This document shows positions 2,332 to 60,355 of a DNA stretch of 64,000 nt, in pieces. Within the stretch, counting starts at the first letter, position 1, and each line of letters begins with the position of its first letter. Position numbers and translations under genes: made by a program. The notes beneath the pieces are model-generated. The model saw only the letters and a program-made list of their open reading frames with translations. It did no database searches and was not told the DNA's origin. This DNA comes from Ginglymostoma cirratum (taxonomy: Eukaryota), in assembly GCA_024137785.1 (NCBI GenBank), contig JAHRHZ010000098.1:24048498-24112497 (forward strand), read 5' to 3'.

Positions 2332-2512
2332 TAAAATTAGTGCTGGAGAAATTCAGCATTTGTGGAGAGAGTTATTGTTTCGAGTCCAATATGATTCTTC
2401 TTCAGACTGGGAAGCATTAACTCTGTTTCTTTCTCCACAAATTCTGCAAGACCTGCTGATTTTCTCCCATACTTTTCTGTTTTCATTAATGTTTACCTGA
2501 CTGCAGCAACGT
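2332..2512. mobile_element. Old fold-back PLE-derived short element with hammerhead core
   Basis: Inverted arms (gctggagaaattcagc...gtggagaga versus tctccac...acctgctgattttctcc). The minus strand carries CTGAAGA-A-GAATC..GACTC-GAAAC at ~2377-2405. Confidence 0.65.
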
Positions 2513-3149
2513 CTGTAAATATTCTTTGGTGGCACAGTGAGGCTAACAATATACATACTTTTGTAATTGTAGCACTCCTAAGATATATTAACATTTTTCT
2601 ACAATGAATTGCAAGGGATACTAATCCACTCAATATGGCAGTCTTATTGTCCTCCAACAAAGAGCAAACATCTGCTGCTTAATGTGTGTGGTTGTATATG
2701 TTGGCTCTATATTGTATATTGCTAATTATTCATTTTGTACGTGTTGTACTATATCTCCAATACAGGTTATATGTTTGATACTGGGATTATATATTTCTGC
2801 TGAACTGTCACTGAAGTTATGGCAGGAAATCAAGAGGACTCCTATTGAAATTCTGTCCTGTGATGTAGCTGATTTTAATGTAAAGTTCTAATTTTAAATG
2901 CAAAATAGTTATTCATTTAATCATATATTTAAGTGATTTAATTCACAATAGTATCTACTAATTGGAAACTGTAGGTATGGTAGCAAAATTGCAACTCTAT
3001 TCAAATATATTATCAAGCTATGCTGGTTTAATACAATGATTTCAAAACTTATTGGTGCAAGAAATTTTCTGCATTGATTAAAACAACCTGAGGGAGATGT
3101 GGCCAAGGGGGAAGCGGTGGGATTCTCTTCAAAATTAAGGTACCGCTGT

Positions 3150-3470
3150 TGATAGTAAATACTGACAGAAACCTGGCAGCCTGCTGTAAATATTGATGGC
3201 AGGAACTCCCTGCAAATATTAAACCAATTCTGAGGATTCCCTGAGCCACAAAAATATACCTGTGACTTCCTGAAAAATATTGACACTCTTCTGACAACTT
3301 CTGTATACATGAATTTCAAGGAATGCTTGTAAATATTGACACTAATGCAAAGAAATATCTGAAAATCAAGGCACAGTCACAAAGATTCCTCACAAATATT
3401 GACACACACCTAGGAAATTCCCTGTAAGTATTAATATCCTGGTACAAAGAACCCCTGAAATATTGATGCA
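3150..3470. repeat. Degenerate ~30-bp minisatellite with core GGAATTCCCTGTAAATATTGAC
   Basis: AAATATTGAC-like cores at 3155, 3186, 3212, 3273, 3329, 3392, 3424 and 3457, spaced ~26-33 bp or twice that. Confidence 0.75.
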
Positions 3471-4296: not shown

Positions 4297-4661
4297 CAGA
4301 TCAATATCCCTAGTGTGGGAAGAGACCATTCAGCCCATCAAACCAACCCTCCTAAGAGCATCTCAATCAGAACTATCTCCAACACCCCCACCCTACCCCC
4401 GCAGCCCCACATTTACCATGGTTAACCCACCTAGCTTGCACATTCCTGGAAACTACAGACAATTTAGCATGGCTGATTGACCTAACCTGCATATCTTTGG
4501 AACGTGGGTAGAAACCAGAAAACCTGGAGGAAACCCACATGGATATGGGGAGAATGTGCAAACTCCACACAGACAGTTACGCAAGGGTGGAATTGAAGCT
4601 GGGTCCCTGGTGTTGTGAGGCAGCAGTGCTAACCACTGAGCCACTGAGCCACCGTGCCACC
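4297..4661 (-). mobile_element. HE1-type V-SINE
   Basis: Reverse complement of the 1254 element (GGAGAATGTGCAAACTCCACACAGACAG; GTGCTAACCACTGAGCCACC). Confidence 0.9.
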
Positions 4662-4664
4662 CAC

Positions 4665-7379: not shown

Positions 7380-9252
7380 CCAGTTGTACTCCTGAGTCTA
7401 ATTGAGATTGACTATTAACTGAGGTGAAAGTCTCTGAGCTGTTGGACGGTGCGGGTGATGTCAGTGCATCCTCTGAGTGTCCAGTGTCTTCCTCCTCAGA
7501 GGCAGAGGTGCAGCTGAGAGTCACTGATGCTGGCCCCTTTGCTGGGTTTGCTTGGTGCTGTTAGTGTCTACATAAAATTGGCAAATAATTATGTAACAGG
7601 GATAAAGGATTGAGTACATAAGAACATAAGAACTAGGAGCAGGACTAGGCCATCTGGCCCCTTGAGCCTGCCCCACCATTTAATAAGATCGTGGCTGATC
7701 TTTTTGAGACTCAGCTCCACTTACCCGCCAGCTCACCGTAACCCTTAATTCCTTTACTGTTCAAAAATTTATCTAGCCTTGCCTTAAAAACATTCAGCGA
7801 GGTAGCTTCAAAAGCTTCACTGGGCAGGGAATTGCAAAGATTCACAACCCATTGGGCAAAGAAGTTCCTCCTGACCTCAGTACTACATCTGCTTCCCTTT
7901 ATTTTGAGGCGATGCCCTCTAGTACTAGTTTCACCTGCTAGCGGAAACAACTTCCCTGCCTCCACCTTATCTATTCCCTTCATAATCTTATATGTTTCTA
8001 TAAGACCTCCCCTCATTCTTCTGAATTCCAATGAGTATAATCCCAGTCTACTCAGTGTCTCCTCATAATGCAACTCTCTCAACTCTGGAATCAACCAAGT
8101 GAATCTCCTCTGCACCCCCTCCAGTGCTAGTATATCCCTTCTCAAGTAAGGAGACCAAAACTGCACACAGTACTCCAGGTGTGGCCTCACCAGGACCCTG
8201 TACAGCTGCAGCATAGCCTCCCTGTTTTGATACCCCATCCCTTGAGCAATGGTAGACAAAATTCCATTTGCCTGTTTTTTCAGTAGTAGATTAAAAAAAG
8301 GAGTAGATTAAAAATGTTTGCATTGGTGTTAATGGGAGAGCGGCACAGCACAATGAAGGTAACTGGGATAGTTGGCTGTTGAGGTTTGCACATCAGGCTC
8401 TCCTCTGGCTAATTTGAGTGTCATCACATATGGAGTGAAGATTGAAGTAGTTATGGGCCAGCATTTCCTGCATTGAGACGAAGGTAGAGATTGAGTATGA
8501 TAGCAATGGATGGAGGAGCAGTTGTTGAAGATGTAGGAGAAGCAGAGGAGGTGAGGTTGCCCCTGTGAGTGAGTAGGAAGAGAGGGCTGATGCCTGGAAT
8601 TATAAGCAGCTTGGGAAGATGAGGTGGAATGAGCAGCATTGAGTGGATATGATGCATGAATACTTTGAGTTGTAGTCCAGTATTCTTGGCAAGATGCATG
8701 TGCAGTGGCAAAGTTAGTGTGTGTGGTGGCCCCGATGGTGCAAGGTGGCAAATAAAAGATTTGCAGAATAAAACAAAAAGTTCTTTCCTTGCACTCGTGG
8801 ATGTCCCTTCTGACTTGAGGCATAGCACTGACCCAGTAACTATTTGGCTTCAGGTTGGTTTTATCCAGTGGTGTGACCTCCTGTGGTGGACTGCAGGAAA
8901 AAGGACAGCCCACTTCTCTTCATTGCCATCCACCAGCACCTCCAGATCCCTGCCCAGGAAGCAGGAAGCTGGCTTTCCATTCCATACCATAATGGTCCAT
9001 CATAGTGAGAGATGCAGTTCTTGGCTTACAGTGTTTGAACTGGTACATATTGGGTTTTAAATATGGAATCTGTGGTACGAATGTCAGACTGTCCTAGCTG
9101 TGGTGAGCAATTCTGCTTCGCCTGCTGTGTGATTCCATGAGAAAAGAGCCAAACAGCCCAGTTACACAATTAGTGCGAGTCACTCTAAGACATGGTGGAG
9201 TGAGTGGCGTGAATCTCACCCACTTCAACCAAAGATGGGAAAATTCTGTCCA
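7380..9252 (-). mobile_element. Harbinger-type transposon remnant with Myb/SANT-like gene, interrupted by a CR1
   Basis: The minus strand at ~8890-8970 reads ASCFLGRDLEVLVDGNEEKWAVLFP, a Myb_DNA-bind_5-like N-terminus. An acidic Ser-rich downstream segment is in ORF 7291-7524, and a GGACAGAATTTTCCC terminus-like motif is at ~9250. Confidence 0.6.
7616..8272 (-). mobile_element. Young 5'-truncated CR1 (HER1-like) LINE with an open ORF2 C-terminus
   Basis: ORF 7711-8259 reads LQLYRVLVRPHLEYCVQFWSP...LEGVQRRFT...TRGH...RNFF, followed by a 3'UTR and (TTCTTATG)n tail. Confidence 0.95.
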
Positions 9253-14900: not shown

Positions 14901-15550
14901 GAACCCCTCAAGATCTAACAATTATGTGATACGGAGGATTCACAGGAGTTGATATAAGTAGATTGAAATTTGAAAAGCTGAGAATCAACAGTCTTAGATT
15001 GGAATTAAACAAATGATGAGTATTTTGTAAGTGAAATGAAAAGTTGCCATGACTTTAAAATATTCTAGGATGCGACTGATAGATAGTTTTACAGAAAAGA
15101 TAGGGTGCTATGTGGAGACAGCCATAATGGGAACTAAGAATTGCATGATGGAAAATATGAGTGGGTCATCGATAAGCTTCTTAAAGAGGTACAAATGGAA
15201 CAATTAAGTTAGAAACAGTCTAAAATAAGTTTGCTTACTGTTCATTTCTGTGTACTTTATACTGGAGAGAAAAATAAAGAGCAACAGTTGTTGGTTAAAA
15301 TAAAACAGCAAAGGCAAGTGATGGCCAGCGGGTAGTGTTGTTGTCCCTCTCAATAAAATACATAATACAAGGAAAAAACTTTAATTAGACTCAACGCTGG
15401 AACTGGATATTGATTTACAGACAGAAAATGACAAATTTAGTGAGAAGTAAGGATATGAGAAAGACTTCTGTCTGAGTTTAGCTCAAATCAAACAGAAAAT
15501 GGGCATCAGCTGTGGCTGTTATCTCATAAACCGAGGCAGGTAAACCTGAG

Positions 15551-15670
15551 ATAAAAGGTACTGCAGATGCTGGAGAATCCGAGATAACAAGCATGGGGCT
15601 GGATGAACACAGCAGGTCAAGCAGCATCATAGGAGCAGGAAAACTTGACGTTTCGGGCCTAAACCCTTTT
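15551..15670 (-). mobile_element. PLE terminal-repeat insertion with a 14-bp TSD and a mutated hammerhead
   Basis: CAGGTAAACCTGAG at 15537-15550 and 15671-15684 (partly overlapping the element ends). The body matches the PLE end at 48080-48177. The minus strand reads CTGAAAAGGGTTTAGGCCCGAAACGTC. Confidence 0.9.
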
Positions 15671-16329
15671 CAGGTAAACCTGAGTTTTGTTGGAGTACAG
15701 TTGAGAGTACTTCCCTTACTGCTTCGTCTCTTCGACATAGTCAGATGAAGTCAGAGCACAATGTCACTTGAGATAGGGCAGGGACAGAGATATATGTTTA
15801 GGGGGGTGGGGGGACAGATGGTGGGTCAGGGAGTAGACTGTGAAGGACCCTCCAGCTACATTAGAAAAGAGGCCACAACCTGTTGCCTTTCCCACACCTT
15901 GGTGAAGTTAAAGAGGCCCCCAGTGAAAATCAGAATCTCTTCATGGAGAAATTCCACGGTTGTTACAATGAAATGATTCCTTATATTCAAGTCAAATCAT
16001 TGCTAAATAAGGGTTTTATTTGCAAACAAAGATTAAAAATTAGCTTGAGAAAGAATTTCAAAAGTTTGGAAGAATGTGACAAGAATCTGAAATGCTGTCA
16101 CTTCCTTTGCTGCAATGGTACAAGTTGTGAAAAGTTGTGATTTGTTCCTAAAACATGCAGATTAGCTGAATACCATTTTGGCAGACATCTAATTTGAACT
16201 CAGAATTTGGAAATTAAGGACAAAAGAAAGGGAGACAGTAGAAATTTGACAATATCTTGTTCTTTATGCTTATTTATTTTTAAGTTGGTCTTACACAATT
16301 CCTGAGAAACTTTAAGCTAGCTTGAATGT

Positions 16330-17625: not shown

Positions 17626-17629
17626 CTAA

Positions 17630-19190
17630 AAGAAAGGCTAAGGTAGTAGTTTAATGTACTTGGATATTCAAAAGGCATTTGACAATCAAGTGCACAGCAG
17701 GCTCATGGCGAAGGTAATTCCATATGGAGTTAGGGGATAAGCTGTAAAATGCACAGCGAGCTGACTACAAAAAGAACACAGGGGTTTACGATGTTGGCAA
17801 AGGTAGCCCACTGTGTAAGTGTTTCATTTTGTAGTGACAGGCGCTGGGATCACTACCTTCTCCCCTTTAACCCAGAACAAATGTACTCCAGAATTGGAAA
17901 TATAATCTCAAATTTTGAGGATTACATTAAATCCATCACTAATATAACAAGAGGAATGTGACAAAATATAGAGGGCAAGGCATTATGAAATACAGAGATA
18001 TTTGTTTATTTGGTAAATGAACTGTATTGTGTAAGATTGGAGCACTGGTGTCAGCAAAATGTATTATAAATAACTGTGCAAAAAGAACTGCAGATGTTGT
18101 AAATCAGAAACAAAAACAGAATTTGCTGGGAAATCTCAGCAGATGTCTGCTTGTGCACATGTGCATGCGCGTGCTTTTCTCTTACAGGAAAGTCTGAACA
18201 GATTAGGTCTTTAGGAATATGAAAGGATTTACTAAGGTATACATAAGTAAGAAGTTTCCATCTGTGGATTTGGCAGAGAGACTTGAACTTGGGCAATGGG
18301 AATAAGATGGTCTGTAATAAGTTTAATAGAGAATCTAGGAGGATTGTTGTTATCTACAGAATGGTTAGAATATAGAAGTGATAGCCATATAATGTAGTTG
18401 AGGTGGTTAGCATAGAGTGGAACATAGGAACAGGTGTAGGCCATTCAGCCCCTCAAGAATGTTCCACCATTCATGGCTGATCTGAGGCCTAACTCCATAT
18501 CCCTGCCTTTGGCCCATATCCCTTAATACCCTTGATTAGCAAAAATTTATTTATTTCAGATGTAAAACTAACAACTGATCTAGCTTCAACTGCTACTTGC
18601 GGAATGAAGTTCCAATCTCTACCACTCTTTCTGCAGAAATGTGCTTTCTAACATCTCTCCTGAATGGCCTTCCCCTAATTTTTAGGCTCTACTTCCTCGT
18701 TCTAGAATCCCCAACCAATGGAAATAGCTCATCCCTATCCACCTCGTCTTTTCCTGTTACCATCCTGAAGCCTTCAATCAGATCACCTCTTAACCTTCTA
18801 AATTCTACAGAAAATAGGCCTAATTTGTAGAATCTCTCCTCATAACTTGACCTCTGAAGTTGAGGTATAATTTCGTAAACCCGCATTGTATTCCCTCTAA
18901 GGCCAATATAAGGTGAGGTGCCCAGATTTGCTCACAGTACTCCAACTGCAATCTAACCAAGGTTTTGCGCAGCTGCAGCATGACTTCTGCATCCTTATAC
19001 TCCAGTCCTCTAGGTATAAATGGCCAGCATTCCATAGATATATTTAAGATGAAACTAGTTAAGCACATAAGGAAGATAGGTAAAGATAAATATGGTTAGA
19101 AGAATAAGAATGGGAGAAGATTTGAGTGACACATAAATATTGTTATGGTTTGAATTAATTGTCTCTGTATTGTAAATATTATGTAATGAT
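17630..19190 (+). mobile_element. Old decayed CR1 fragments hosting younger insertions
   Basis: YLDIQKAFD at ~17657 (CR1 RT motif) and a 3'-end-like segment at 19036-19190. Confidence 0.5.
18415..19035 (-). mobile_element. CR1 LINE 3' fragment
   Basis: ORFs 18820-19068 and 18689-18886 read RGLEYKDAEVMLQLRKTLVRLQLEYC and YEERFYKLGLFSVEFRRLRGDLIE. Confidence 0.9.
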
Positions 19191-19199
19191 ATACATATA

Positions 19200-20929: not shown

Positions 20930-21425
20930 GTTATGATGTGGCAGTGCTGGTGATGGATTGGACTGGACAAGATCAGAAGTCACACAACACCAGGTTATGG
21001 TCCAACAGGTTTATTTGAAATCACAAGCTTTTGGAGTACTGCTCCTTCATCAGGTGGAGTGAAGAATAGCACACAGGCACAGTATTTAAAGGTGGAGAAA
21101 TCAAAAGAGTGTACAAATGGTGAGTGGAGTGTCAACAGGCTGAATAATAAGTCTTCGCAGGTGATTAAAAGTCTCAGACAGTGTGAGTAAAGTGTCAACA
21201 AATGAATAACAAGTGAAGTGATGATCCTTAGATAACAAGGTGTAGAGCTGGATGAACACAGCAGGCAAGGCAGTGTCAGAGGAGCAGGAAGGCTGACGCT
21301 TCGGGTCTGGACACTTCTTCAGAAAAGGGTCCAGCAAAACTCCAGTAGCAGCAGTCCCTACTATCTCTAAGTGATGATCCTTATTCTGATTAATTGAGGC
21401 AGAGGGATGATTACAAAAAATTGGA
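20930..21425 (-). mobile_element. PLE-related fragment (second family) with hammerhead, hosting a younger insertion
   Basis: The minus strand at ~21025-21053 reads CTGATGA-A-GGAG-CAGTA-CTCC-AAAAGC (G12 mutated). Confidence 0.65.
21231..21368 (-). mobile_element. PLE terminal-repeat insertion with an inverted tail and 15-bp TSD
   Basis: AAGTGATGATCCTTA at 21216-21230 and 21369-21383. The body is on the minus strand and the terminal ctccag..gcagtccctactatctc is on the plus strand. Confidence 0.85.
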
Positions 21426-23604: not shown

Positions 23605-23970
23605 TGGTGTTACAGTGGCTCAGTGGTTAGCACTGTTTCCTCACTGCGCCAGGGACCTGCGTTTGGTTCCAGCCTTGGGTGACTGTCTGTGTGGAGTTTG
23701 TACATTCTCCCCTTGCCTGTGTAGGTTTCCTCGGAGAGCTCTGTTTTCCTCCCACAGTCTAAAAATGTGCAGGCTAGGTGTATTGGCCAGACTAATTTGC
23801 CCACAGTATTCAGGGGTGTGTAGATTATTTGGATTGGCCATGGGAAATGCAGAGTGCGGGGATAGGGTCGGAGGGTGGATCTGGGTGGAATGCTCTTCGC
23901 AGGGTCAGTGCAGACGCAATGGGCTGAAACTCCTGCTTCCACACTGTAGGATCCTATAATACTATGATTC
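23605..23970 (+). mobile_element. HE1-type V-SINE
   Basis: GTGGCTCAGTGGTTAGCACTG head, V-domain and CTATGATT tail. Confidence 0.9.
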
Positions 23971-24169: not shown

Positions 24170-24735
24170 TCAGCAAGTACAATCATAAGAGAATCAGGAC
24201 ATTCTGCCCATTGAGTGCACTCCATCTTTCAATGAGGTCATGACTGGCAACCCTCAACTCTACTTTTCTGCTTCATCCCCACAACCCTTGATTCTGAACC
24301 TGAACCTTGAATGTATTTGATGACCAAATATCAACAGCTCCCTGTGGTAAAGAAGTCCACATATTCACCACCCTGGATAAGTAAAAAAAACCCTCCACAT
24401 CTCTGCCTTAAACGATTGACTCCTTATGCTGAGATTATGTCCTCTGGTCCTAGAGTCTCCAATAAAGGAGGAACAGTAGTACACACCTAAAATAATATAA
24501 AACAAAAAAACTCTGGATGTTGGAAGTCCAAAACAAAAATCAGAAATTAATGGAGATATTCAGCATCTGTGGGGAGAAAGCAGAGTTAACATTCTGAAGA
24601 AGGGTCACTGGACTTGAAACATTAACTCTGTTTTCTCTCCACAAATGTTGCCAGACATTCCACATCTGCCCTGTCAAACTCCCTGAAGCTCTTAAATTTC
24701 AATAAAGTCTCCTCTCATTCTGCTAAACTCCAACT
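24170..24735 (-). mobile_element. CR1 3' fragment containing a fold-back PLE-derived insert (~24495-24657)
   Basis: Minus strand reads RTRGHNLSIR. The insert has inverted arms around CTGAAGA-A-GGGTC-ACTG-GACTT-GAAAC. Confidence 0.7.
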
Positions 24736-26919: not shown

Positions 26920-27243
26920 ACATAGAATCATAGATACATTTGGAAGCAGGCCATTTGGCCCATCGAGTCCACACCAACCCTCTGAAGAGCATCCCACCCG
27001 GACCCACCCCCTACCTTACTCCTTTAACCCTGCATTTCCCATGGCTACCTAGCCTGCACATCTCTGGACAGTATGGGCAATTTAGTATGACCAATCCACC
27101 TAAACTGCACATCTTAGGACTGTGGGAGGAAACAGGAGCACCCAGTGGAAACCCACACAGACACGGGGAGAATGTCTGTCGGGAGTTTGCACAGATACCT
27201 GCAGGTGGAATCGAACCTGTGTCTCTGGCGCTATGAGGCTGTA
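26920..27243 (-). mobile_element. HE1-type V-SINE, tRNA head interrupted by a PLE-derived insert
   Basis: Same family as 4297-4661. The head resumes after 27356. Confidence 0.85.
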
Positions 27244-27343
27244 ACAAAAACAGAAGTTGCTGGAAAAGCTCAGCAGGTCTGGCAGCATCTGTGAAGAAAA
27301 ATATCAGAGTTAACGTTTCGGGTCCGGTGACCCTTCCTCAGTA
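27244..27343 (-). mobile_element. Short PLE-derived element with a 13-bp TSD
   Basis: CTATGAGGCTGTA at 27231-27243 and 27344-27356. Confidence 0.9.
27309..27341 (-). ncRNA. Minimal hammerhead ribozyme motif with intact core
   Basis: CUGAGGA-A-GGGUC-ACCG-GACCC-GAAAC-GUUAAC: conserved core, perfect 5-bp stem II and palindromic AACGUU stem III. Activity and expression are untested. Confidence 0.7.
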
Positions 27344-28087
27344 CTATGAGGCTGTATTGGTCTACACTGACTGAATAAATTTTGGAGATGAAAGTTTCTG
27401 AAACTGAATTATCCCCTGGACAGATTTGCTTATCGTGCTCCCCATATGGTAACACATGTGTCGCCCTGTACTTAAATGTCAGAGCAGAATAAAGCCCAAA
27501 ATCAGGCATTAATTGCCCATTTAAAGACTGTAGTTGGTGACAGGGTGGGATTTGCCATCAATATGAATTTAGTCAGGATGAAGACAGGAAGGTGCTTGGG
27601 GTTCCACCCACTATACATCTTCTTGATGAAATGCCCTCTGTGCCTCTAAACCCACCTGAGGGAAGGCATAAAATACTGCACAGTGTTGCACTTCAGTACT
27701 TTTCAATGGAGATGCTTTTCAAATCAGGACATAAGAGGGCTATGGGGCTGAAGGATTGGGAAGATCATTTATCCATGTTTTAACATTCTGGGTCATATGG
27801 ATTTCATCACTTTAACTAGTTGTGAAGTGATTTGAAAAGCTTAAATACACAATTCTTGGGAGAGCTTGCAAACATTAATGTAACCTCTTAGGTGCACGTG
27901 ACCTGAAGTATGCTTTATGTATTAATGTATTGCGATGTGGAGAGTCATTTTCTCCTCCCTGGTGGGCCATGAGAAATGACAAGGAAGTTGCAAAATGCAA
28001 AGAAAATGAAAAAAAAATTAAAATGTTGTCATTGAGGGAATAATTTCTGTAATTTTCCCTATAAGCTTTAAATGGTGATTTCACTTG

Positions 28088-29780
28088 TGGGACATGGGTG
28101 TTACTGGCTGACTAACATTTCTTGCTCATCCCTAGTTAGTTTTGAGAAGGTCATGGTGAGCTGCCTTCCGGAACCACTGCAGTCCACACGTTATAGGTTG
28201 ACCCGCAATGCCCTTAGTGAAGGATTCAGGATTTTGACCCAGTTATAGTGATGGAATGGTGAAATATTTCCAAGTCAGGATGATGAGTGGCTTGGAGAGG
28301 AACTTGCATGTGACAGTGTTCCCATGGATCTGCTACCCTTGGCCTTCTAGATGGAAGTTGTCATAGATTTGGAAAGTGATGTTGAAGGATCTTTGGTGAA
28401 TTTTTAAGTGCATCTTGTTGATAGTACACACTGGTGCTACTGAGAGTTGATGGTGGAGGGAGTGGATGTTTGTGGATGTAATGCCAATCAAGCGGGTTGC
28501 TTTGTCTTGGATGGTGTCAAGCTTCTTGAGTGTTGTTGGGGCTGCACTCATCCAGGCAAGTGCAGAGTATTCCATCACACTCTTGACTCGTGCCTGGTAG
28601 ATGCTGGATAGGCTTTGGGAGTCAGGAGGTAACTTACTCACTGCAGTATTTCTAGCCGCTGACCTGCTCTTATAGCCACAGTGTTGATGTGACAAGTCCG
28701 CTTGAGTTTCTGATCAATGGTAACACCAAGGATATTGATAGTAGGGATTCAGTGATGGTAACACCACTGAATATCAAAGCAGGTGATCAGATTGTCTCTT
28801 ATTGGAGATGGTCATTTCTTGGCATTTGTGTGGCGTGAATATTACTTGCCACTTGTCATCCCAAGCCTGGATGTTGCCTCGACCTTGTTGCATTTGAACA
28901 TGGACTGTTTCAGCATCTGAGGAGTCACAAATGGTGCTGAATATTGTGTAATCATCAGAGAACATCTCCAGTTCAGCCCTTATGATGGATGGGAAGGTCA
29001 TTGATGAAATAGATAAAGATGGTTGGGTCTAGGAAACCATCCTGAGGAACTCCTGCAGAGATGTCTTGGAGCTGAGATGACAGGCATCTAACAACCACAA
29101 CCATCTTCCTATGGACCTGGTATGACTCCAATCAGTGGTGTGTTTACCACCTGATACCCATTAATTCCAGTTTCGTTAGGGCTCCTTGATAACTCACTTG
29201 GTTGAATGTAGCCTTGATGTCAAGGGCTGTCACTTTCACCTCACCTCTGGAATTCAGCTCTTTTGTCCATGTTTGAACCAAGGCTGTAGTGAGGTCAGGA
29301 GCTGAGTGGCCCTTGGGAAACCCAAACTGGGCAATGCTGAGCAGGTTATTGCTGAGCAAGCATTGTTGGTAGCAATGTTTTTGACCCCTTCCATCACTTT
29401 ACTGATGTTTGAGAGTAAACTAATGGGGCAGTAATTGGCTGGGTTGGATTTTTCCTGCTTTGTGTGTACAGGACATACCTGGGCAATTTTCCACATTTTC
29501 ATTTAGATGTCAGTGTTGCAATTGTACTGGACCAGCTTGGCCAGGGGAGAGGCAAACACAAGTCTTCAGTACTATTACCAGAATGTTGTCAGGGACCATA
29601 GACTTTGCGATATCCAGTGCCTTCCAGTGGAGTGATTGAAATTAGCAGAGGACTAGTATCTGTAATGCTGGGGATCCCTGGAGGAGGCAACGATGGACCA
29701 TCCACTTGGCCATTCTGGCTGAAGGTTGTGGCAAATGCTTCAGCCTTATCTTTTGCACTGATATGTTGGCCGTCATTGGG
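28088..29780 (-). mobile_element. CR1/L2-clade LINE, RT domain to 3' end (decayed)
   Basis: WKIAQVCPVHTKQEKSNPANYCPISLLS; QFGF..LDIKATF; MFSDDYT; SVMEYSALAW..LDTIQDKA. Confidence 0.9.
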
Positions 29781-33791: not shown

Positions 33792-34075
33792 CTGGGGCAG
33801 CATGATGTCTCAGCAGTTAGAACTGTTGCCCCACAGCTCCATGGATCCAGGTTCAATTCCATCATCAGATGACTGTCTATGTGGAGTGTGCATGTTCTCC
33901 CCATCCCTGCGTGGGTTTCTTCCCCTGGTCTAAAGATGTGTAAGTTAGGTGGATTGGCCATGGGAAGTACAGGGTTACAGGGACAAGATGGGTCTGGATG
34001 GGATGCTCTTTGGAAGGTCAGTGTGGACTTGATGGGCTGAATGGCCTGCTTCCATACTGTAGGGATTATAGACAT
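33792..34075 (+). mobile_element. HE1-type V-SINE with internal deletions
   Basis: TGACTGTCTATGTGGAGTGTGCATGTTCTCCCC and GGGCTGAATGGCCTGCTTCC. Confidence 0.85.
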
Positions 34076-36550: not shown

Positions 36551-36972
36551 TCAAATCACCACAGAACAAAACACAACATGTGTTCCCAAGGCACACAGAA
36601 ATTCAAGAACGTGGGGCCTTCTTAAGGACTACTGGAGAATCAAAATAAATCATATCCCCAAGAGGTAACCAAATGAAATTTGCCCAGTCAGAAGATAACT
36701 AATTTTTATGGCCTGCAGTGGAAGATTGCAGGAATCATTCTCAGAACAAGGCCCCACATTTCCTCAGTTCCCATTTACAGTGTGCTAGGAACTAGTATGA
36801 GTTCATATAGTATAAGACATAGCTATTGGTAGGATCATCTAAGACTCAAATGTGAGGAGATTTTGATCCCAAAGAGTCAAGAGAGTTTGAGAAGTTATGG
36901 CTTCTTCTTACACACATGTGCATAGGTACAAATATTGTTAGTGAAATGTGAAAGGTAACAAATTTTTATCCA

Positions 36973-37095
36973 TTCTGAAGAGGGTCTTTGGACTTGAAAC
37001 ATTAACTGTGCTTTCTCTCCATAGATGGTGCCAGACCTGCTGAGTTTCTCCAACAATTTCTTCAGCATCTAGAGTTCTTTATTTTAATTTTATGC
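36973..37095 (+). mobile_element. Short PLE-derived element with degenerate hammerhead
   Basis: CTGAAGAGGGTCTTTGGACTTGAAACATTAAC...CCAGACCTGCTGAGTTTCTCC. Confidence 0.7.
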
Positions 37096-41798: not shown

Positions 41799-41804
41799 TT
41801 ACAA

Positions 41805-42306
41805 AATACCCGCGATAGGAAGAATGTTGTGAAACTTGAAAGGCTTAAGAAAAGATTTACAAGGATATTGCTAGGGATGGAGGGTTTGAGATATAAGGAG
41901 AAGCTGAGTAGTCTGGGGCATAGAAGGCTGATGGGTGAGGTTATAGAAGTTTAAAAAATCATAAGGGGCATGGATAGAGTGAGTAGCCAAGGTCTTTTCC
42001 CCAGGGTGTGGCAGGCCAAAACTAGAGTGCATGGGTTTAAGGGGTGAGGGGAAAGATTTAAAAAAGGGACCCAAGATGTGACATTTTCACGTGGAGAGTG
42101 GTGTGTTATTGGAATGAGCTGCCAGAGGAAGGGTGGAGGCTGGTACAATTACTTCTAAAAAGCATCTGGATGGGTATGTGAATAGGAATGGTTTAGAGCA
42201 ATATGGGTCAAATGCTGGAAGATAGGACTAGATTAGTTTACGATATCTGGTCAGCATAGACAAGTTGGATCAAAGGGTCTATTACAACTCTATGACTCTA
42301 TGACTC
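41805..42306 (+). mobile_element. CR1 LINE 3' fragment
   Basis: RKNVVKLERLKKRFTRILLGMEGLRYKEKL, with a (CTCTATGA)n tail. Confidence 0.9.
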
Positions 42307-43974: not shown

Positions 43975-45460
43975 TAATATTTTTCTAGCATTTTGTCCAG
44001 AGTCAGGAAATATTTCAGTGAAGTTTTTTTTAATTGGAGGACCACGGACCTAATTTCAGTTTTAATGCAGTCTCAGCACTGACCATGTGTGCTAAGTCTT
44101 TGTCATTTGCCAGCAGTTCATGTCAGTTTTGATATCTGTAAGGCGTCTTAAGTTGAGCAACGACACATTGACAGCTCATTGCACACTTCATTCCTTGAGT
44201 AAAGAAAAGTGACAACCTCAGGCATTAGATCTAGAAATCTTTGCAGGTCCTTCTCTCCACTTATCTACCTCACAGCTGTGTGAAAGATTAGTTCACCATA
44301 GGCAGCATTGAGTTTGTCCAGCAAGGATTCAACAAAACAGTGCTGAAGGGCTCTTGGAGACACTAAAGGCTGCAGATGCTGGAAGCCAGAGGCAATAGAC
44401 ATGAAGCTTGAAAAGCACAGCAGGTCAGACAGCATCCGAGGAAAAGGAAAATCAACATTTTGGGCCGAAACAGCTCTGACAAAGGGTTTTGGCCCGAAAC
44501 GTTGACTTTCCTCCTCATCAGTTGCTGTCTGACCTGCTATGCTTTTCCAGCATCACATCTATTGATCCTGAAGGGCTCTTATTTGAATTAAGTTTACAAT
44601 CTTCTCATTACATAAGAAAAGTGCAGACTTTTACTCGCTAATGTTTGCTGGTGGATTATACAGTGGCAATTGTCAAAAGAGAGAAAAATCAGGATTGTAT
44701 CTGTAAAATGCATCAAAGGCCATACCTTTACCAAGCATGGTTGGGGAACTACCAGTTATGATGGAACTTAGCTTCTTGATTGGAATGTTTTTCTTAAGCA
44801 AGTGCCTTTTGTATTCACAGCAGAGATCCTCACCCCTTGTTCTTTCGAAAGGACAAAAGGGTGAGAAGAACCTCTTTGGATTTTATATCCTCAAAAACTG
44901 CAAAAATTAATCAGCTGGCTTTTTCGGTGACAATGATGAACTCAAATTTCAGTGAGAAGCTTTCCCAGTTCTTCAGATCCTGCTGTGGTTACTGAAAGAT
45001 ATCTTCAAACAAAGATTCAACACGTCTTGCTTCTGTGGAAGTACCAAGTGACATGTTTTAGTTTGCTGTTATCATTTCTTTTTTGTTTGTAAAGTCTTTC
45101 ATTAAAGTGCCAATGGCCACGGTTGTTGCTTCTTTAATAAATTTACCATTCGCGAATGATTCCTTGAATTTTGTCAGAAGATGGTAAATGTGAAATAACA
45201 TTTCGGTGCAGGCCTGACCTTTTGCTGCTGTTTAGAAACAAATGATTGCTGAGTTTTCAAAATGGCCTTCATCAACTTCCTTTGTCTGAAGCAGACAATT
45301 CAAGAGAAAACTATCCTTGAAATTCCTGTGCATCATTGTGTTCCAAATTCTGCTGTTAACTTAGCGATATAATTTGGTGACAAACAAGGCAAATGCTTTT
45401 AGCTTTTATAGTTATGAGCAGAAACTCATTTCCCCGTTCCACGTGGAAGGTTTTTTTAGG
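43975..45460 (-). pseudogene. Decayed hAT transposase (SPIN/GTF2IRD2/EPM2AIP1-like)
   Basis: FHVERGNEFLLITIKAKSICLVCHQ; FANGKFIKE; HCIIHQQTL; YGELIFHTAVR*ISGEKDLQRF (resembling VRWLSRG). Multiple stops and frameshifts. Confidence 0.85.
44356..44567. mobile_element. Fold-back PLE-derived element inside the hAT gene, 13-bp TSD
   Basis: CTGAAGGGCTCTT at 44343-44355 and 44568-44580. Inverted arms of ~80 bp, with CTGACAAAGGGTTTTGGCCCGAAACGTTG near the centre. Confidence 0.9.
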
Positions 45461-46700: not shown

Positions 46701-47261
46701 CTAATGAACTAAAAGGTCTTGCATTCAGTAGAACTCCTGGACCATGTAGAGGACCCTAACCAGACAGTTCACTGGTTTAATGGACACCTGTTAGTTAGCA
46801 GTTACTGCACTACCTGAAGCCTTGATCAAAAAATTTGGACTTAGTTAGTGCACCATTGTACTTGATCTATACAAGCATTGACACCATTCTCATCAGACAG
46901 GGCATAGAAGAAACTAAATAAAATGTTATTAAAGCCTTCCACTCCTGTTTTGGATTATGTGATAACATGATATACCAGGCAAAGCTTAATTGGTGCGAGC
47001 AGGAGCCATGAGAAACAATTGATTCCTCTATAAATGATTTGTGTTGGCTTGCTGATATTTGTCAGAATGGAACTGTTATGATCCAAGATCATATCGTCAA
47101 ATTAATGTTACGCTCTGTATTGGGAGCAGTAACCTTTATTTGAAAGTAGACAACAAGTGAGATCTGCACTATTTACTCTGGGAATAAAGTCACTAGATTC
47201 CATTGTTTTGAACAAATTATCGTAAACTTTACTATAAAAGGTAGAATAATTATACAATCTA

Positions 47262-48177
47262 GAGATGGTCCAGGTGAACTTCAGGTTGGGGTGGAAGGTG
47301 TTGGTAAAGTGGATGCTCTTGTCCGCTCCACACTCCCCGCCAGCCCCACCACACCCGGCACTTTTCCCTGCAACCGCAGGAAGTGCTACACCTGCCCCCA
47401 TACCTCCTCCCTCACCCCAATCCCAGGCCCCAAGAAGACTTTCCACATCAAGCAGATGTTCACCTGCACATCTGCCAATGTGGTATACTGCATCCGCTGT
47501 ACCCGTTGTGGCCTCCTCTACATCGGGGAAGCCAAGCGGAGGCTTGGGGACCGCTTTGCAGAACACCTGCGCTCGGTTCGCAACAAACAACTGCACCTCC
47601 CAGTCGTGAACCATTTCAACCGCCCCTCCCATTCCTCAGACGACATGTCCATCCTGGGCCTCCTGAAGTGCCACAGTGATGCCACCCGAAGGCTGCAGGA
47701 ACAGCAAATCATATTCAGCCTGGGAACCCTGCAACCCAATGGCATCAATGTGGATTTCACAAGCTTCAGAATCTCCCCTCCCCCAACCGCATCCCAAAAC
47801 CAGCCCAGCTCATCTCCACCTCCCTAACCTGTTTTTCCTCTCACCTCAAGCCACACCCCCATCTCCTATCTACTAACATCATCCCGCCACCTTGACCTGT
47901 CCGTCCTCCCTGGACTGACCTATCTCCTCCCTACCCCCTACCTACACTCACCTTTACTGGCTCCATCCCCGCCTCTTCGACTTGTCTGCCTCCTCTCCAC
48001 CTATCCTCTCCTCTATCCATCCTCTATCCGCCTCCCCCTCTCTCCCTATTTATTTCAGAACCCTCTTCCCCTCCCCCATTTCGGATGAAGGGTCTAGGCC
48101 CGAAACGTCAAGCTTTCCTGCTGCTATGATGCTGTTTGGCCTGCTATGTTCATCCAGCCCCACGCCTTGTTATCTTG
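47262..48177 (+). mobile_element. Young Penelope-like element: GIY-YIG endonuclease, 3' region and hammerhead-bearing end, with an inverted 5' piece
   Basis: ORF 47291-47827 reads PCNRRKCYTC...NVVYCIRCTRCGLLYIGEAKRRLGDRFAEH...GINVDF. Bases 47262-47311 encode RT-region IHFTNTFHPNLKFTWTI on the minus strand. CGGATGAAGGGTCTAGGCCCGAAACGTC is at 48082. Confidence 0.95.
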
Positions 48178-48549
48178 GTTTAAGGTAGTGCTATTTGTCT
48201 CCCAATGCACAGTGTAGGCTATAGCACAGTCATGAAGAGAGCAAACCAGAAATCAAATTAGCACATACCTACTTTGCTGAATTAAATAGGGAACACATCA
48301 GTTCCTATGCGGATGAAGGGATAATGAAAGGGGTGGTGTATATAATCAAAATGCTCAAGGCAGTAGCAGCAGAAGCTGGCTGGCGACCTGGAAGCCATGA
48401 TGTTCCGAAGGCCATGGGACAGAATAGGGACAAGCCCCAAATTGCACTAACTAAACTGGGGAAACACAGTCGCTCCCTCAACAAGACTGCTCTGGCAAAC
48501 ACACAAAAGATAGTTCAAATGCTACTAATAATGCCCAGGCATTCAAACT

Positions 48550-52782: not shown

Positions 52783-53465
52783 TGCAGTGATCGTAACAAG
52801 TTCAACTAGGTGTACCTCGTAGAATATATGAGTTCCACGATTGGGGCTGTTAATTTGGTCCAATCAGGGAGACAGACAGGAACAGGAGTATCAGACATCC
52901 TGTTTGCTCTGAGAGCTGGATCAGTGTCAAGGATTCCCTACATGTAAAATAAAGGGTGATTTGGTGATGGAATACTGGTCTCTGTGGAGTTATTTCAGTG
53001 GCAATGAGAGAAAAAGCATGCTCCTGAAGAACTCATAGCAGTTGTCTGAGTTGTGGTCAGCATTTCTGGTCTCATGCTGTTACTTGGGAAGTTTGACTTC
53101 TTCAATACTGCCATCAAAGACTGGGCCCAGTATGTGGAAAGAGTGCGTTAATTTTTCTGAGCCAACAACATTCAGTCAGATGAAAAGCAATGAGTAATTC
53201 TACTGACAGCTTGTAGACCTGCAGCTTTTTCACTTATTAGGAGCCAAATGCTCCCTGCAGTACCAGCCAATAAAACCTTTCAAGAATTGACAGATTTAGT
53301 TAAGTAATAGTATAAACCACAAGACTCCCCTAATTCTAAGGTGCAACTGTTGTTACTTGACAATTCAAGAACCAGAGGAATCCATACTGGAACTTTTGAG
53401 CAAACTAAGATGACTGACAGGGGCGTATAACTTGGATTTAACCCTTAATGAGATGCTGAGAGACC
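52783..53465 (+). mobile_element. Gypsy (K02A2.6-like) element, 5' part: LTR 52783-52997, primer-binding site and gag N-terminus
   Basis: TG...CA LTR similar to the reverse complement of 56396-56625, followed by TGGCAATGAG. gag reads MLLLGKFDFF..DWAQYVERV..FQELTDLV..LNEMLRD. Confidence 0.85.
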
Positions 53466-53535
53466 TGCTGAGCTTTTCCAGCAAATTTGTTTTTGTTCCT
53501 GATTTACAACATCCGCAGTTCTTTTGGTTTTTATA
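53461..53535 (+). mobile_element. PLE-derived arm at the left inversion breakpoint
   Basis: AGACCTGCTGAGCTTTTCCAGCAAATTTGTTTTTGTTCC plus the terminal tail. Confidence 0.85.
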
Positions 53536-54589: not shown

Positions 54590-56394
54590 TGCAGATACTA
54601 TTTTTCCAGTGACTGAGGTGACTAGAGCAGTGGCAAAGCCAAATCTGTCATGGGAAACCAAAACACCACCACCAGGTTCAAATTTTGATTGCAATGTTCA
54701 GGAAGCAGAGGTTTTGCCCAATGTACAGGAGAATGAGGAAGTGCAAGTAACTTTGATGCAATTAAATGAGTGTAGTAACAGAGAAAATACTTCCAGTATT
54801 CACAGTAACATTTTGTGCAAATCTTTCATGTTCTGCGCTCCGAAAATGACAACATTGCCCAGGGAAGGAAACATTAAGGATAACCAAGCAACCCTTGTAC
54901 AACTAAAAGAATGCGGAATGGTTGTTGAGTTTTCTGCTACAATTTCTCCTTTAAAGTCCTTCATGGATCTGTCAAACTATGGTCAGGAAGTATTAGTATT
55001 TCTCAGTGTTTGACAAACTTTGGAGTGGGAAAATTCCCTGCTGACTCAGATGATGAGCAGAACCTACATTCAGAGAGGAAGTAAGAAGTGCATTGAAAGT
55101 GAAGCACAGGAAATTAAATTTCAATAGAATCAGCAAACTTGGGTCAGGATCCCACAGCAACTGAGATTCAAATTCCTCACACTGATTATTGTCAATCAAG
55201 TCAGTAAAAGAGATGTTTTNNNNNNNNNNNNNNNNNNNNNNNNNNNNNNNNNNNNNNNNNNNNNNNNNNNNNNNNNNNNNNNNNNNNNNNNNNNNNNNNN
55301 NNNNNNNNNNNNNNNNNNNNNNNNNNNNNNNNNNNNNNNNNNNNNNNNNNNNNNNNNNNNNNNNNNNNNNNNNNNNNNNNNNNNNNNNNNNNNNNNNNNN
55401 NNNNNNNNNNNNNNNNNNNNNNNNNNNNNNNNNNNNNNNNNNNNNNNNNNNNNNNNNNNNNNNNNNNNNNNNNNNNNNNNNNNNNNNNNNNNNNNNNNNN
55501 NNNNNNNNNNNNNNNNNNNNNNNNNNNNNNNNNNNNNNNNNNNNNNNNNNNNNNNNNNNNNNNNNNNNNNNNNNNNNNNNNNNNNNNNNNNNNNNNNNNN
55601 NNNNNNNNNNNNNNNNNNNATCTCAGATTCTCCAGCATCTGCAGTTTCTACTATCTCTGAAACAAGTTTAAGTTAGATTGCTTCAAAAACAAATGGACAT
55701 ATGCAGTTCAGAACAGTTGAAAAATAAAGCCTCGAAAAATGAATTTTCAGTTTGAAGTAATGGTTCAAGGTAGTAGATTTTCCAGGGAAATACAGTTGGT
55801 TAACACAAAAACCTACCAGCCTATTGAAGAAATCAGGTTTCTATTCCAACCCAAGGATGTAGACATCAGTCAAGTAACTGATAAAGGAAGCAACTGCAGT
55901 TAGAACAAGGGAATCAGACCTGAAAGCAAATGCAGAGAATAATATTTTCTGTTCATATCTTGAAGATGACTTTGTTGCAACAAAAAGGAAAAAAAAATGC
56001 TAAAGTATTTATTTGAGTTTGAATTGCAGGAAGATCTCAAACACCAATCTAAAAGCATTTGTCTGGGACCCAGATAACTCAATACAGTTTTAGACACTGA
56101 CCACAGAGGAATTATCTGTGGAGCCAGATGAAGTTAATTTTTCTTCTGTTTCAGTTGAAGGCTTGAATCCAAACACTAAGTGCTGTTATCCCAGATTAAT
56201 GTTATTTTATTTGGATTAAAAAGACTGGGCACCAAACAGATAGAATTTTATGTTCATGAGAGAAACTTTGTTGAAAAGTTTAAAATTGCAAAACTCAAGA
56301 CTATACCAATGGTGCCAACTGGTTAAATTCTCAAATATAAAGATTGTTCACATTGTTGGTAAAGATAATGTGATTACAGATGCCTTGTCCAGAT
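54590..56394 (+). mobile_element. Decayed Gmr1-like LTR element pol remnants
   Basis: IFPVTEVTRAVAK (post-protease motif) at ~54600, and RNase H end NIKIVHIVGKDNVITDALSR at 56334-56393. Confidence 0.55.
55220..55619. other. Assembly gap (400 N), with a PLE tail on its right edge
   Basis: Run of N followed by ATCTCAGATTCTCCAGCATCTGCAG. Confidence 1.
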
Positions 56395-56395
56395 A

Positions 56396-59300
56396 GAATA
56401 CTGACCTCTGCAGTTATTTCAGTCATCATATCACTCTTCATGTACACATGGAGAGTCCTTGGCACTGATCTAACTCCCTTAAAGCCATCTCAGAGTGACA
56501 AGATCTCAGACACTCCTGTTCCTATCTGTCAACTCGGGCTCCCTGACTGGGCCACATTAACAGCCATAATCAGGGAGCTCACTTTCTAGGAGATCCACCT
56601 GGCTGACCTTGTCAAAGCCACAACATCCCATCCCTTGGAGTCTGAGGACACAGGCTGTTTCCCCAACTCCCATCTCCTCCTGGGGCTTTTTAAGTCACTG
56701 GGTCAGGTTCCTTTGACTCTGCCTCTGATACAGGTGGTATGTAATGCATAGCAGCTCACCTCTTGCACCTGGAGCAACTGGGAAGAAATCCATTCTCTTC
56801 TATAGGCAGCAAAGGCATTGATGTGGTGACATCCACTGTATCCATCTCAGATTCAGATGTCTCTTCAACTCTTGATGGACAGGGAGAACCCCTGTGTTCC
56901 AGGACAGTTGGAAAGGCTGTCGAGGAGCAAAGCATGTATCACTCTTGCACCATATATGAATTTGCAGCTTTCATGTGGTTCACGTGCTTGTTCAGAACTG
57001 TCGTACCTACCTGAACTTTATACGTTACTGGACCTGACCTCACATCAACCATGCCTCTTACCCACGTAGGGCGATTCCTGTGCTTCCAACACCAAAATTT
57101 GTCCCCTGCAGTAAACTGTCTCACTCAGTAGAGTCCTGTGTCCAGCACTTATGTTCCTGATGCCATTTTCACCCTCACCCCAAACCCGGGAACATCAGAG
57201 TTAACCTGGTACGGTGCCTTCTCCCCATTAGCAACTCTGCTGCAGCTATCCCCATAGTTGCAAGAGGAATGGTCCTATAATCAAACAGGAACCAGGACAG
57301 TTTGGTATCTACTCAAGCTGAAGGCTGTTTCTTCAAGCCTACCTTCAAAGATTGAACTGCTCTTTCTGCCAAACCATTAGATGGTGGATGGTACGGAGTT
57401 GTCCTTAATGTCAAATACCATTCGACTCTCGGAAATACTCAAACTCCCAGCTGGTAAACAATGGTCCGTTATCTGTGACCAACCCTTCTGGGAGAGCCCA
57501 TGTATTGCGAAAGATGTGTGCAGCTTTTCTACTGCTGTCATTGTTTTAAACGAATGAACTCTATGCATGTCCAGCCACTTTTAGTGGATATCCACAATCA
57601 CTAGGAACATTGAGCCCATGAAAGGACTAGCACAGTTGTCATGTAACCGAGTCCAGGGTTTACCTGGCCATTCCTACAAATATGGGGGAGATACTGGTGG
57701 TAATTTTTGTCCTTGGTGGCACTCTGGGCACTGCCCCACAACTGCAGCTCTGTCTGCATCCAATCCTGGCCACCAGACATAACTTTTCACCAACATCTTC
57801 ATTTTGGAAACCCCTGGTGGAGTTCAGCCAGTATCTAGTAGCAACTTTTTAATGGGAAGAATTATTCTTGCTCCCCATAATATGCCATCCTCTGATATGA
57901 CCTGGTGTCTCTGGGTCCATAAAAGTTACAATCTGGTTGTGATGTACCTATGATTTCACCACCGCCCCCACCCCCACCCCCACCCCAACCCCCACGATCA
58001 GCCGTTTCAGTTTTGACAGGATGGGATTTTTCCCCAATCCAAATTCTGATACTGTCAACTGTGACTGGAAGGGTGTCCAGACAACTGGACACCACTATGG
58101 ACCCTTCCAATGGCAGTACCACCAGTGGTGTATCTGCCAGTGGGAGGCAGCTCAATGCATCCGCATTTTCTACCTGGCCGCCCAGACGGTGGTCCAACTT
58201 ATAATTGTACGTACTTCTTATTAGAGCCCACTGCTGAATTCAACCTGAAACTATGGCCGTACTGCCTTGTCCTTTAAGTACACCTAGCAGGGGTTTGTGG
58301 GCTGCTACAATTAGAAATTAACATCTGTAAAGCTATTGGTGGAACTTCCCAACTCCAAGTATGACCACTCAACCTTCCTTCTCCACCTGGGAGTACTTAT
58401 GCTCTGCATTAACCAAAGTCCTGGATGCATACTCTATTGTTCCTCTCCATTGGGCCACGTATGAGCTAATACTACTCCAATGCAGTACAGGGAGACATTG
58501 CACGTCAATACCAGATCTCACTTGGGACCAAAGTCTGCCAACACCTTTGAGGATGACAGCGGTTTCTTTACTTCCTTGAAAGCTGACAGTGTTTGATGCA
58601 AAGGTGCCAGATTTTGTATGAAATTTTCATAATAATTCACCGACTCAAGGACAGACCTGATCTCTGGAGCAAAGGTACCTTGGATCACCCTTACTTTATC
58701 TTCCGGTAATCCAGTCTGGTTGACTCTGTAGCCCAAGTAGGTCACTTGAGTTGCCTGGAGCACATATTTTCCCCTTCTAAGGCATCTACCCACCTGGGAG
58801 ATACATTGAAGGATTATATCCAAACTCTCCAAGTGCTCTTTAATGATCTTCCCTGTTGTTAGCACATCCAGATAAATGGCAACCTGGCCTAGACCTCAAA
58901 ATGTTCTCCACTATCTGCTGGAAAAGGGCACAGGCTGATGGTACCCAATGTGGCAGTCTTGTGTTTTGGCACAAACCCTTATGGGTATTAATTGTGGCAT
59001 ACTTCTGGTACTCCTCATCTAGTCATAATTGCAGAACAGGTGGCTCATGTCCAGCTTTGTGAAGAACAGGCCCCTGCCAGTTTTACAAGTACTCTATGCG
59101 AGGGATTGAGTATTTATCCAGCTGCGAGAAGTGGTTTACCATTTGCCTTAAGTCTCTACAAAGGCAAACCGACCCATTGGGCTTCATGATTGGTACAACC
59201 AATGCTGCCCATTTCACAAACTGCACTGGTTTGATGATTCCTTCACTTTCCAGCCTCCTGATTTCTGCCTCTACTTTTGCCCGTAAGGCCAATGGCAGTG

Positions 59301-60251
59301 GCCGGGCCTTGCAGAATTGTGTTTTTGTTTCCTAGTAACATGCAAGGTGGCCTTGGCTTCTTTGATAATCTCTAGGCCTTCCTGAAAAAATGTCTGGGTA
59401 TTTAATTAGGACTTCACTCAGGCGGCCATTTTCTAATCAAAGAAATGATCAGCCAATCTAGGTGAGTCTTTGTCAACCAATTTCATTTCATCAAGCGTGA
59501 GCCCAAGCCTTTTACTACAATCAGTGGGAACTGAACCAGCTCCTTCCCGTAAGAGTCTGGAACTGAAGTTGCACCTGTAATCTGCAAAGGTTCCCCAGTA
59601 TAGGTGCTCAGCCTAGCCAAGGTCATGTGCAAACTTAAGGATTGGAGTCCAGAGAGAATTTTGCTAAAGACTGGTTCTGCAATCACTGAATTGGCTGAAC
59701 TAGTTTCAGCCTCCATTAGAACCAGGTGACCATTTAACCAGACATTTACTTTGTTTGGTTCTGATTTGGATGTTGCTAAGCTATTTAGTTGTTCCAACTC
59801 ACATGTAGGTGGACTTTACAGGTGGCGCACTCTCCTGGATACCGGCCTACGAGTTCTCTTATTCAATTTAGGTCTAGTGGGACTCCTTTGCTGTCTCAAG
59901 TCTATATACTAGCAGGAACTACAGTGGTTTGCTGGCCCAGATCCTAAAGAAAATTTTAACCGTTTGGCCGAGTCTTGGCTTTGTTTTGGGGTTTTGCTGT
60001 GTGCTGACCTAGAGTCCCTCTGTTCAGGATATATCCTGAGTGTAGCTATGCCATCACCTTCACTTAAGTGGTTTTCCCCAACCACAGCCAGCCTGGCTAG
60101 GGTTTTGAGTTTCATCAGAATACCCAGCAACTCATATGCTCCACTTGAAGCATTTTCCACTGATAATGTCAGTTGTACTACTTGTTTGAAGTCCAGTTGG
60201 GCTTCAGCTGGTAGGCACTTTTGCATGGTTACATCATTAATCCCACACACT
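56396..60251 (-). mobile_element. Gypsy element, 3' part: gag C-terminus, PR, RT, RH, IN, polypurine tract and 3' LTR (decayed)
   Basis: VCGINDVTMQK; LNGHLVLMEAETSS; KVEAEIRRLESEGIIKPV..WAALVVP; TYLGYRV; ENADALSCLP; YWWPGLD; VRSGPVTYKV. The tract AAGGGATGGGA is followed by the LTR 56625-56396. Confidence 0.92.
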
Positions 60252-60355
60252 CAGAATTGAGGAAGGGTCACTGGACCCAAAACGTTAACTCTGTTTTCTC
60301 CTCCACAGATGCTGCCAGACCTGCTGAACTTTCCCAGTAAATTTGTTTTTGTTCC
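60252..60355 (+). mobile_element. PLE-derived arm with degenerate hammerhead at the right inversion breakpoint
   Basis: TTGAGGAAGGGTCACTGGACCCAAAACGTTAAC...AGATGCTGCCAGACCTGCTGAAC. Confidence 0.85.

Follow-up and report, generated by a model that had tools for sequence, protein, structure and literature searches.

The 64,000-nucleotide (nt) window analyzed here, positions 24,048,498 to 24,112,497 of contig JAHRHZ010000098.1 in the 4.36-Gb Ginglymostoma cirratum assembly GCA_024137785.1, carries twelve hammerhead ribozyme-like motifs, all twelve at the positions and on the strands given in the original prediction, which was made from the letters without database searches. As that prediction proposed, they are minimal hammerheads of Penelope-like elements (PLEs) from several families, of the kind described in PMC4209133 (statements on published work refer throughout to passages of the papers cited). 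Self-comparison assigned them to family A (15647, 21295, 31776, 32236, and 48082), family B (27309 and 60257, with older members at 24594, 36975, and 2377), family C (21025), and a related type, D (44476). We consider it probable that the motifs are minimal hammerheads, mostly damaged, at the ends of at least three PLE families and that the 100- to 140-nt copies, here called stubs, are by-products, namely cDNAs of the 5' leader of PLE RNA. Motifs of this class, their association with truncated PLEs, and the occurrence of opposite-strand pairs are already published; the new point is the agreement, in three families, between the beginning of the short copies and the RNA start predicted from a TATA-like box plus initiator.

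The family A motif at 48082 lies about 250 nt downstream of a GIY-YIG frame in a 5'-truncated PLE (47261-48181, plus strand), in which an inverted reverse transcriptase (RT) piece (47261-47314) is followed by the GIY-YIG end, 3' untranslated region (UTR), hammerhead, and tail (47318-48181). Its GIY-YIG match is above the Pfam cut-off (E = 2.8e-05), and the copy is 94% identical over 874 nt to locus L024, where a frame of 947 to 948 amino acids (aa) carries RT, a CX4CX2C linker (CNRRKCYTC), and, at the C terminus, a GIY-YIG domain (RVT_1, E = 3.5e-05; GIY-YIG, E = 2.2e-04, both slightly below the Pfam cut-offs). The complete family A unit runs from 3' UTR through hammerhead and tail to an ATG 166 to 167 nt past the core and then to the RT and GIY-YIG frame. 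The hammerhead lies in the pseudo-long terminal repeat (pseudo-LTR), at both ends of family A units and downstream of the endonuclease (EN) in families B and C. Genome-wide, the family A GIY-YIG protein gave 125,804 first-look candidates; the 150 that were scored were 93 to 100% identical, and a core was present downstream in 17 of the first 20 loci. For family B, 3 of 30 loci have a GIY-YIG frame some 270 nt upstream, and for family C degraded RT/EN sequence, about 23 to 38% identical to that of A, lies upstream in about 8 of 25 loci. The short repeats of these three families are the ends of coding PLEs and not separate families of short interspersed elements (SINEs); the earlier view of them as nonautonomous SINE-like derivatives is not supported, coding parents with the same ends having been found for A, B, and C. 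Because of the CX4CX2C linker motif between RT and EN, the parents likely belong to the Neptune clade (PMC8557442). A Protein Data Bank (PDB) sequence search with the PLE protein gave no matches, and open frames of 1,900 to 2,000 aa proved to be runs of N rather than coding sequence. The window also holds an old, degraded PLE endonuclease fragment (30744-31270, minus strand), about 35% identical to that of A, with no recognizable hammerhead behind it.

Where the short copies begin was measured relative to C3 of the core. The 776,827 sampled bases contained 125 pieces of family A, 86 of B, and 12 of C; 111 of the family A pieces had a readable 5' side, and the 14 located at N or at edges were set aside. 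Starts fell between -8 and +2 in 42 of the 111, further upstream in 37, and downstream in 32, and family B showed the same start peak. Genome-wide start patterns, which required two nonparent letters before the start, gave 3,664 family A copies at -4 versus 158 at +24, 240 at +27, and 401 at +38; the count of 2,321 at +29 comes mostly from a subfamily lacking one A. By eye, 9 near-full-length copies among 28 loci taken from the 5' end of the frame reach the front hammerhead, 4 starting near -4 and 5 carrying upstream UTR, and 5 of 8 inverted arms at the 28 loci end at -3 or -4. Short copies and inverted arms alike stop about 4 nt ahead of the core (about 7 nt in family C). Target-site duplications (TSDs) of at least 8 nt, some of the short ones possibly due to chance, flank 14 of 25 (A), 8 of 23 (B), and 2 of 5 (C) solo stubs, and family copies end at two tail positions about 30 to 40 nt apart, often with 8- to 17-bp TSDs.

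These starts coincide with promoter-like motifs. In the copy at 48082, a putative TATA-like box, TATTTAT (48047-48053, plus strand), lies 31 nt ahead of the predicted RNA start at A48078, within the initiator-like CCATTTC (48076-48082, plus strand); positions 48078-48081 double as the 5' strand of helix I. Of 27 long family A copies, 24 have the box (23 of them 31 nt ahead of the predicted start), as do 10 of 11 of family B (at -29 or -30) and 18 of 25 of family C (-29 to -31 in the 14 that were measurable). The initiator consensus is YYANWYY, and the parents match it with the A at -4 in families A and B and at -7 in family C. Since the short copies in each of A, B, and C stop at an initiator that follows a TATA-like box by 29 to 31 nt, they likely represent cDNAs of the RNA 5' leader. 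Random 5' truncation, or RT stops at the hammerhead fold, neither of them linked to the RNA start, is in our judgment an unlikely origin of the stubs. Heavy 5' truncation is known for PLE copies (PMC8557442), and long family A copies do have scattered starts, from -13 to beyond -240; however, the start peak lies 5' of the fold, on its far side, and is 9 to 23 times as high as the counts at three clean controls. In family C it moves with the initiator to about -7, and in three diverged families it stays 29 to 31 nt behind the TATA-like box.

The mechanism that we propose begins with a TATA box and initiator within the 3' UTR belonging to the upstream unit, which would start the RNA 4 nt (in family C, 7 nt) ahead of the core, and each PLE RNA would thereby carry a hammerhead both at the front and at the end. 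Reverse transcription would be primed by the PLE protein at sites inside the tail; the published precedent is a lizard PLE, in which internal tail priming is described and protein-assisted cleavage was dispensable for insertion (PMC11167929). Synthesis primed at the front tail would run off at the start of the RNA, leaving a stub, and priming from both DNA nicks would leave head-to-head inverted arms. Twin priming is known from L1. The ribozyme would probably be retained by selection on master elements and would show weak cleavage, either in dimers or helped by the protein; inserted copies would decay and, within host RNA, would mostly form long hairpins, likely edited by ADAR and not cut. Non-CpG changes in family A amount to 20/595 (3.4%) in the core versus 138/2,846 (4.9%) in the tail (P = 0.13) and in family B to 15/358 (4.2%) versus 141/1,553 (9.1%) (P = 0.002), which fits a constraint on the masters. 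All 11 core bases are retained in 43 of 75 family A and 22 of 45 family B copies, and 21% (A) and 31% (B) of ribozyme CpG sites are mutated.

On balance, we lean slightly toward the reading that vertebrate Neptune PLE RNA starts at a TATA-plus-initiator promoter 4 to 7 nt ahead of the hammerhead and that stubs and fold-back arms are run-off leader cDNAs. Several observations weigh against the leader-cDNA explanation. Microhomology at the junctions blurs the stub boundary, also in favor of random truncation: in an unselected set of 41 short copies, the commonest stub (15 copies) matches the parent for 3 nt and carries T at -4. An extra G ahead of the start, found in 70 of the first 100 listed copies by hand count, was considered as a cap-derived base; it is enriched, but many cases can be put down to the target sequence, to small duplications, or to the inverted arm, and the enrichment could not be told apart from microhomology, so that a cap origin is not established. 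One deep polyA RNA run (12.9 million records read; source species and animal not shown to match this genome) had no site where many molecules begin or end on family sequence. Helix I contains a mismatch in the A2 subfamily, the conservation of the family B core is also compatible with some selection on the copies themselves, and the Penelope promoter of Drosophila virilis is TATA-less (PMC2377424), in contrast to the TATA-like box seen here.

The arrangement of neighboring copies bears on whether the short repeats are instead independent nonautonomous ribozyme SINEs or retrozymes with masters of their own, cutting as dimers between neighbors. Among 51 same-family neighbors no more than 600 nt apart, 45 were head-to-head, 4 tail-to-tail, and 2 on the same strand, and the lengths of inverted arms vary from copy to copy, as expected from separate events. 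Each tested family (A, B, and C) has a coding parent with the same end, and the stubs lack an upstream TATA-like box. Families B and C are mostly short, with the parent UTR absent from 41 of 52 pattern-matched copies of B and all 31 of C, a solo stub carries its own TSD, the core of family B occurs in one triple tandem, and the parent of type D (44476) was not traced; even with these points in its favor, an independent SINE or retrozyme origin strikes us as very improbable. The triple tandem (L129, G000:C8:13624952-13625064) consists of three head-to-tail 38-nt family B cores inside a fold-back and is the only natural same-strand multimer seen.

The prediction had further suggested that neighboring copies could cleave each other; most copies are damaged, and close neighbors lie on opposite strands. 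In the window, 31776 and 32236 are the two arms of one insertion with a common 15-bp TSD, 44476 and 24594 are fold-backs, and the core at 27341 has had its helix I replaced by host sequence. The segment 27309-27341, put forward for cleavage assays, has no 5' strand of helix I and would likely fail whatever the ability of its family. Cleavage between neighbors is unlikely, because pairs are inverted, family RNA is A-to-G edited, and ends do not pile up at the cut site. The last two points come from the RNA data. In the polyA run, 20,134 records (about 0.16%) fell on the 280-nt family end (window 47900-48181), equally in both mate directions, and 18 records did so in a second run; RNA ends at the predicted site, proposed earlier as a check, were not piled up in the deep polyA run. 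At the 14 listed sites that were checked (24 rows not shown), family RNA had 10 to 19% A>G, mostly at UA and CA, versus 9 of 1,121 bases (0.8%) in genomic copies, a pattern that is likely ADAR editing of inverted arms. Editing of Penelope RNA has been published for a lizard (PMC5625713).

We regard as doubtful the idea that hammerhead cleavage takes place regularly during the cycle in the animal and that copies beginning at the cut are its fossil record. Family A copies starting at +28, the predicted cut, number 966, in excess of the controls at +27 (240), +24 (158), and +38 (401), and a TSD abuts the cut site in 3 of 30 such copies inspected. However, about half of these 30 are inverted junctions, several centered on AAGCTT, and 3 are small indels; AA-rich targets move boundaries to +28, the +29 control is swamped by the subfamily without one A, the RNA run has no end pile-up at +28, and insertion of the lizard PLE did not need cleavage (PMC11167929). 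The excess, 2 to 6 times the controls, is modest and confounded, and a cleavage footprint is not established.

The copies in the window, taken as ribozymes, are unremarkable remnants of the published class. A strict descriptor (CUGANGA, stem II of at least 4 bp, and GAAA; stem II imposed, helix I not) gave 5 matches in the window versus a mean of 0.15 (maximum, 2) in 40 shuffles and 40 matches in a 477,727-base sample versus 0.9 (maximum, 3); this sample comprises the 44 of 58 sampled stretches that held sequence, the rest being N, and part of it flanks the window. The motifs are thus far more frequent than chance. The Infernal/Rfam scan proposed as a check matched no hammerhead model among 10 window matches with E up to 10. 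The cores had been described as intact or one or two mutations away; the motifs are real, but both boxes are intact in only 5 of 12 (24594, 27341, 31803, 32236, and 36975), and the other 7 have a changed core base or a broken stem. Only 31803 and 32236 additionally have U-H and a 3-bp helix I, with the stem III palindrome altered in both (AUGU and AUCU), and none of the twelve is identical to its family majority across the whole ribozyme.

In A, B, and C the family majorities have the CUGANGA and GAAA boxes with U16.1-H17, and stem II is closed by G10.1-C11.1 with an extra nucleotide ahead; the extra A after the CUGANGA box and the small stem III palindromes noted earlier hold at this level, 15.2-16.2 being palindromic (ACGU in A and B, AGCU in C) with no loop on stem III. 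The claim that stem II differs between families with pairing kept is right as to the differences, but few related lineages underlie them, with GGGU/GCCC, GGGUC/GACCC, and GARUC/GACUC all belonging as variants to one related A/B group. Helix I, overlooked earlier, flanks the core with 3 to 4 bp in A1, B, and C and changes pair types between families (27 hand-picked representatives from few lineages); its majorities vary on both sides, with UUU/AAG in A, AGUU/AACU in B, and UCAC/GUGA in C, and AGUC/GACU in one copy of type D. In the covariation alignment, MAFFT set family C out of register. Monomer folding gave helix I a probability of at most 0.001 in all seven contexts, including the parent, which is expected for minimal motifs and uninformative on dimers. 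A further hammerhead family lies outside the window (L117:746-795, L220, L076, and L190), with a stem II of 6 to 7 bp and an extra U or C; it adjoins Poseidon-like RT pieces, and 3 of 5 copies have a TATAAA-like box upstream.

The remaining window copies show the range of decay. The family A hammerhead at 48082-48109 (plus strand) has U4>G, with the predicted cut after 48109. The inverted family A pair is a single head-to-head insertion (31714-32363, assigned to neither strand) that spans a masked stretch between TSDs at 31699-31713 and 32364-32378; its minus-strand core (31780-31803) has intact boxes and C15.2>U and lies within the inverted junction hairpin, and its plus-strand core (32236-32259) has intact boxes and a broken stem III palindrome. 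The family A stub at 15551-15673 (minus strand) lacks G8, and its first CTG falls within, and is provided by, the 14-bp TSD (15537-15550 and 15671-15684). An older family A (A2) stub at 21230-21329 (minus strand; motif at 21322) has A15.1>G and a broken stem II, and the family C end at 20934-21224 (minus strand; core 21029-21053), with 171 nt of parent 3' UTR, has G12>A. Of the family B stubs, that at 27244-27343 (minus strand) has an intact core (27316-27341) but has lost the 5' strand of helix I; it is flanked by a 13-bp TSD (27231-27243 and 27344-27356). The one at 60253-60356 (plus strand; core 60257-60282) has C3>U and G12>A. Older family B copies comprise a fold-back insertion at 24561-24656 (plus strand), with core 24594-24619 in the loop of an approximately 30-bp hairpin, a stub at 36968-37059 (plus strand; core 36975-36999) with the extra A lost and the palindrome broken, and a decayed fold-back insertion at 2354-2483 (minus strand; core 2378-2405) with a stem II mismatch and U16.1 lost. 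The fold-back insertion of subfamily D (44356-44567, plus strand; core 44476-44499) has G8>A and a 13-bp TSD (44343-44355 and 44568-44580). Four further PLE tail pieces, overlooked in the prediction, lack a core (62658-62754, 55620-55655, 53451-53533, and 18082-18142); the alignment of the first starts near the cut, but it abuts a run of A and was not counted as a cleavage footprint.

Other repeats surround these copies. A SINE of about 330 nt, which we take to be HE1-like, is present in five copies (1253-1578, 4306-4653, 23613-23960, 26925-27239, and 33794-34070), the end of one of which adjoins the 27309 stub. RT C-terminal fragments of long interspersed elements, presumably CR1/L2-like, lie at 7711-8307 and 28333-28713 (both minus strand, with no Pfam match) and at 41800-42300, and degraded LTR-retrotransposon-like protease and RT fragments lie at 58518-59815 (minus strand; weak RVT_1 match, E = 0.01). 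A Pfam search for host genes with the 150 longest of 244 nonrepeat frames gave three weak matches, all below the cut-off.

The load of these elements is high. A family A 31-mer has 51,102 exact matches in the genome, a family B 37-mer 2,398, and a family C pattern 57, each with none in its reversed control. Rough scaling of the 40 strict cores per 478 kb gives an estimated 3 to 4 x 10^5 intact cores genome-wide if the sample is typical, which would far exceed the vertebrate counts of about 4,000 motifs in coelacanth and 9,000 in Xenopus (PMC4209133). The interest lies in the element itself: on the questions of PLE transcription and inverted ends, the young, very abundant family A offers a precise prediction of the RNA start together with a simple origin of stubs. 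If the proposal is true, the genome provides a read-out of the RNA start, the first RNA bases form ribozyme helix I, and the inverted ends of PLE insertions find an account in twin priming. Of the hundreds of thousands of stubs and arms, the arms would then contribute much of the edited double-stranded RNA of this species, and inverted arms may act as Alu pairs do in human RNA editing. In listings and passages, a scope that left subscription papers, Repbase, and supplements outside, we found no publication that connects short PLE copies with the RNA start and no published report of shark PLE hammerheads.

Minimal hammerheads are known from the pseudo-LTRs of metazoan PLEs, and those described in PMC4209133 resemble the present ones in the CUGANGA and GAAA boxes, the extra nucleotide ahead of stem II, G10.1-C11.1, the palindromic 15.2-16.2, the short helix I, the presence of several families per genome, and the predominance of single motifs on truncated PLEs with some close opposite-strand pairs. 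Stem II is 4 to 5 bp here versus 7 to 8 bp in Schistosoma, and the load here, judged by the exact copies of one 31-mer, is far higher; the passages of that paper name no shark. Neptune PLEs (PMC8557442) likewise have RT, the CX4CX2C linker, and C-terminal GIY-YIG in one frame, with partial tandems, inverted 5' pieces, and an optional 30- to 40-nt tail. The Anolis Poseidon PLE (PMC11167929) shares a hammerhead near the RNA front, two internal RT starts that bound the tail, and nicking and extension of both DNA strands; its frame begins in stem II, whereas the ATG here is well past the core, and in the passages of that paper the RNA start is neither mapped nor tied to short copies. Non-LTR retrozymes (bioRxiv 10.64898/2026.07.22.740005) also carry type I hammerheads of PLE origin, in one case from a chondrichthyan, but form tandem arrays with a ribozyme per unit, whereas the copies here are single or inverted. 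The putative TATA box and initiator in the pseudo-LTR have a counterpart in Adineta Penelope (PMC3846280), and both Adineta and D. virilis Penelope have a promoter in the pseudo-LTR, derived from the 3' UTR belonging to the upstream unit, as well as junction palindromes (PMC3846280, PMC2377424). Self-priming on an antisense template was the published reading of the Adineta palindromes (PMC3846280), whereas the inverted arms described here end at the predicted sense start.

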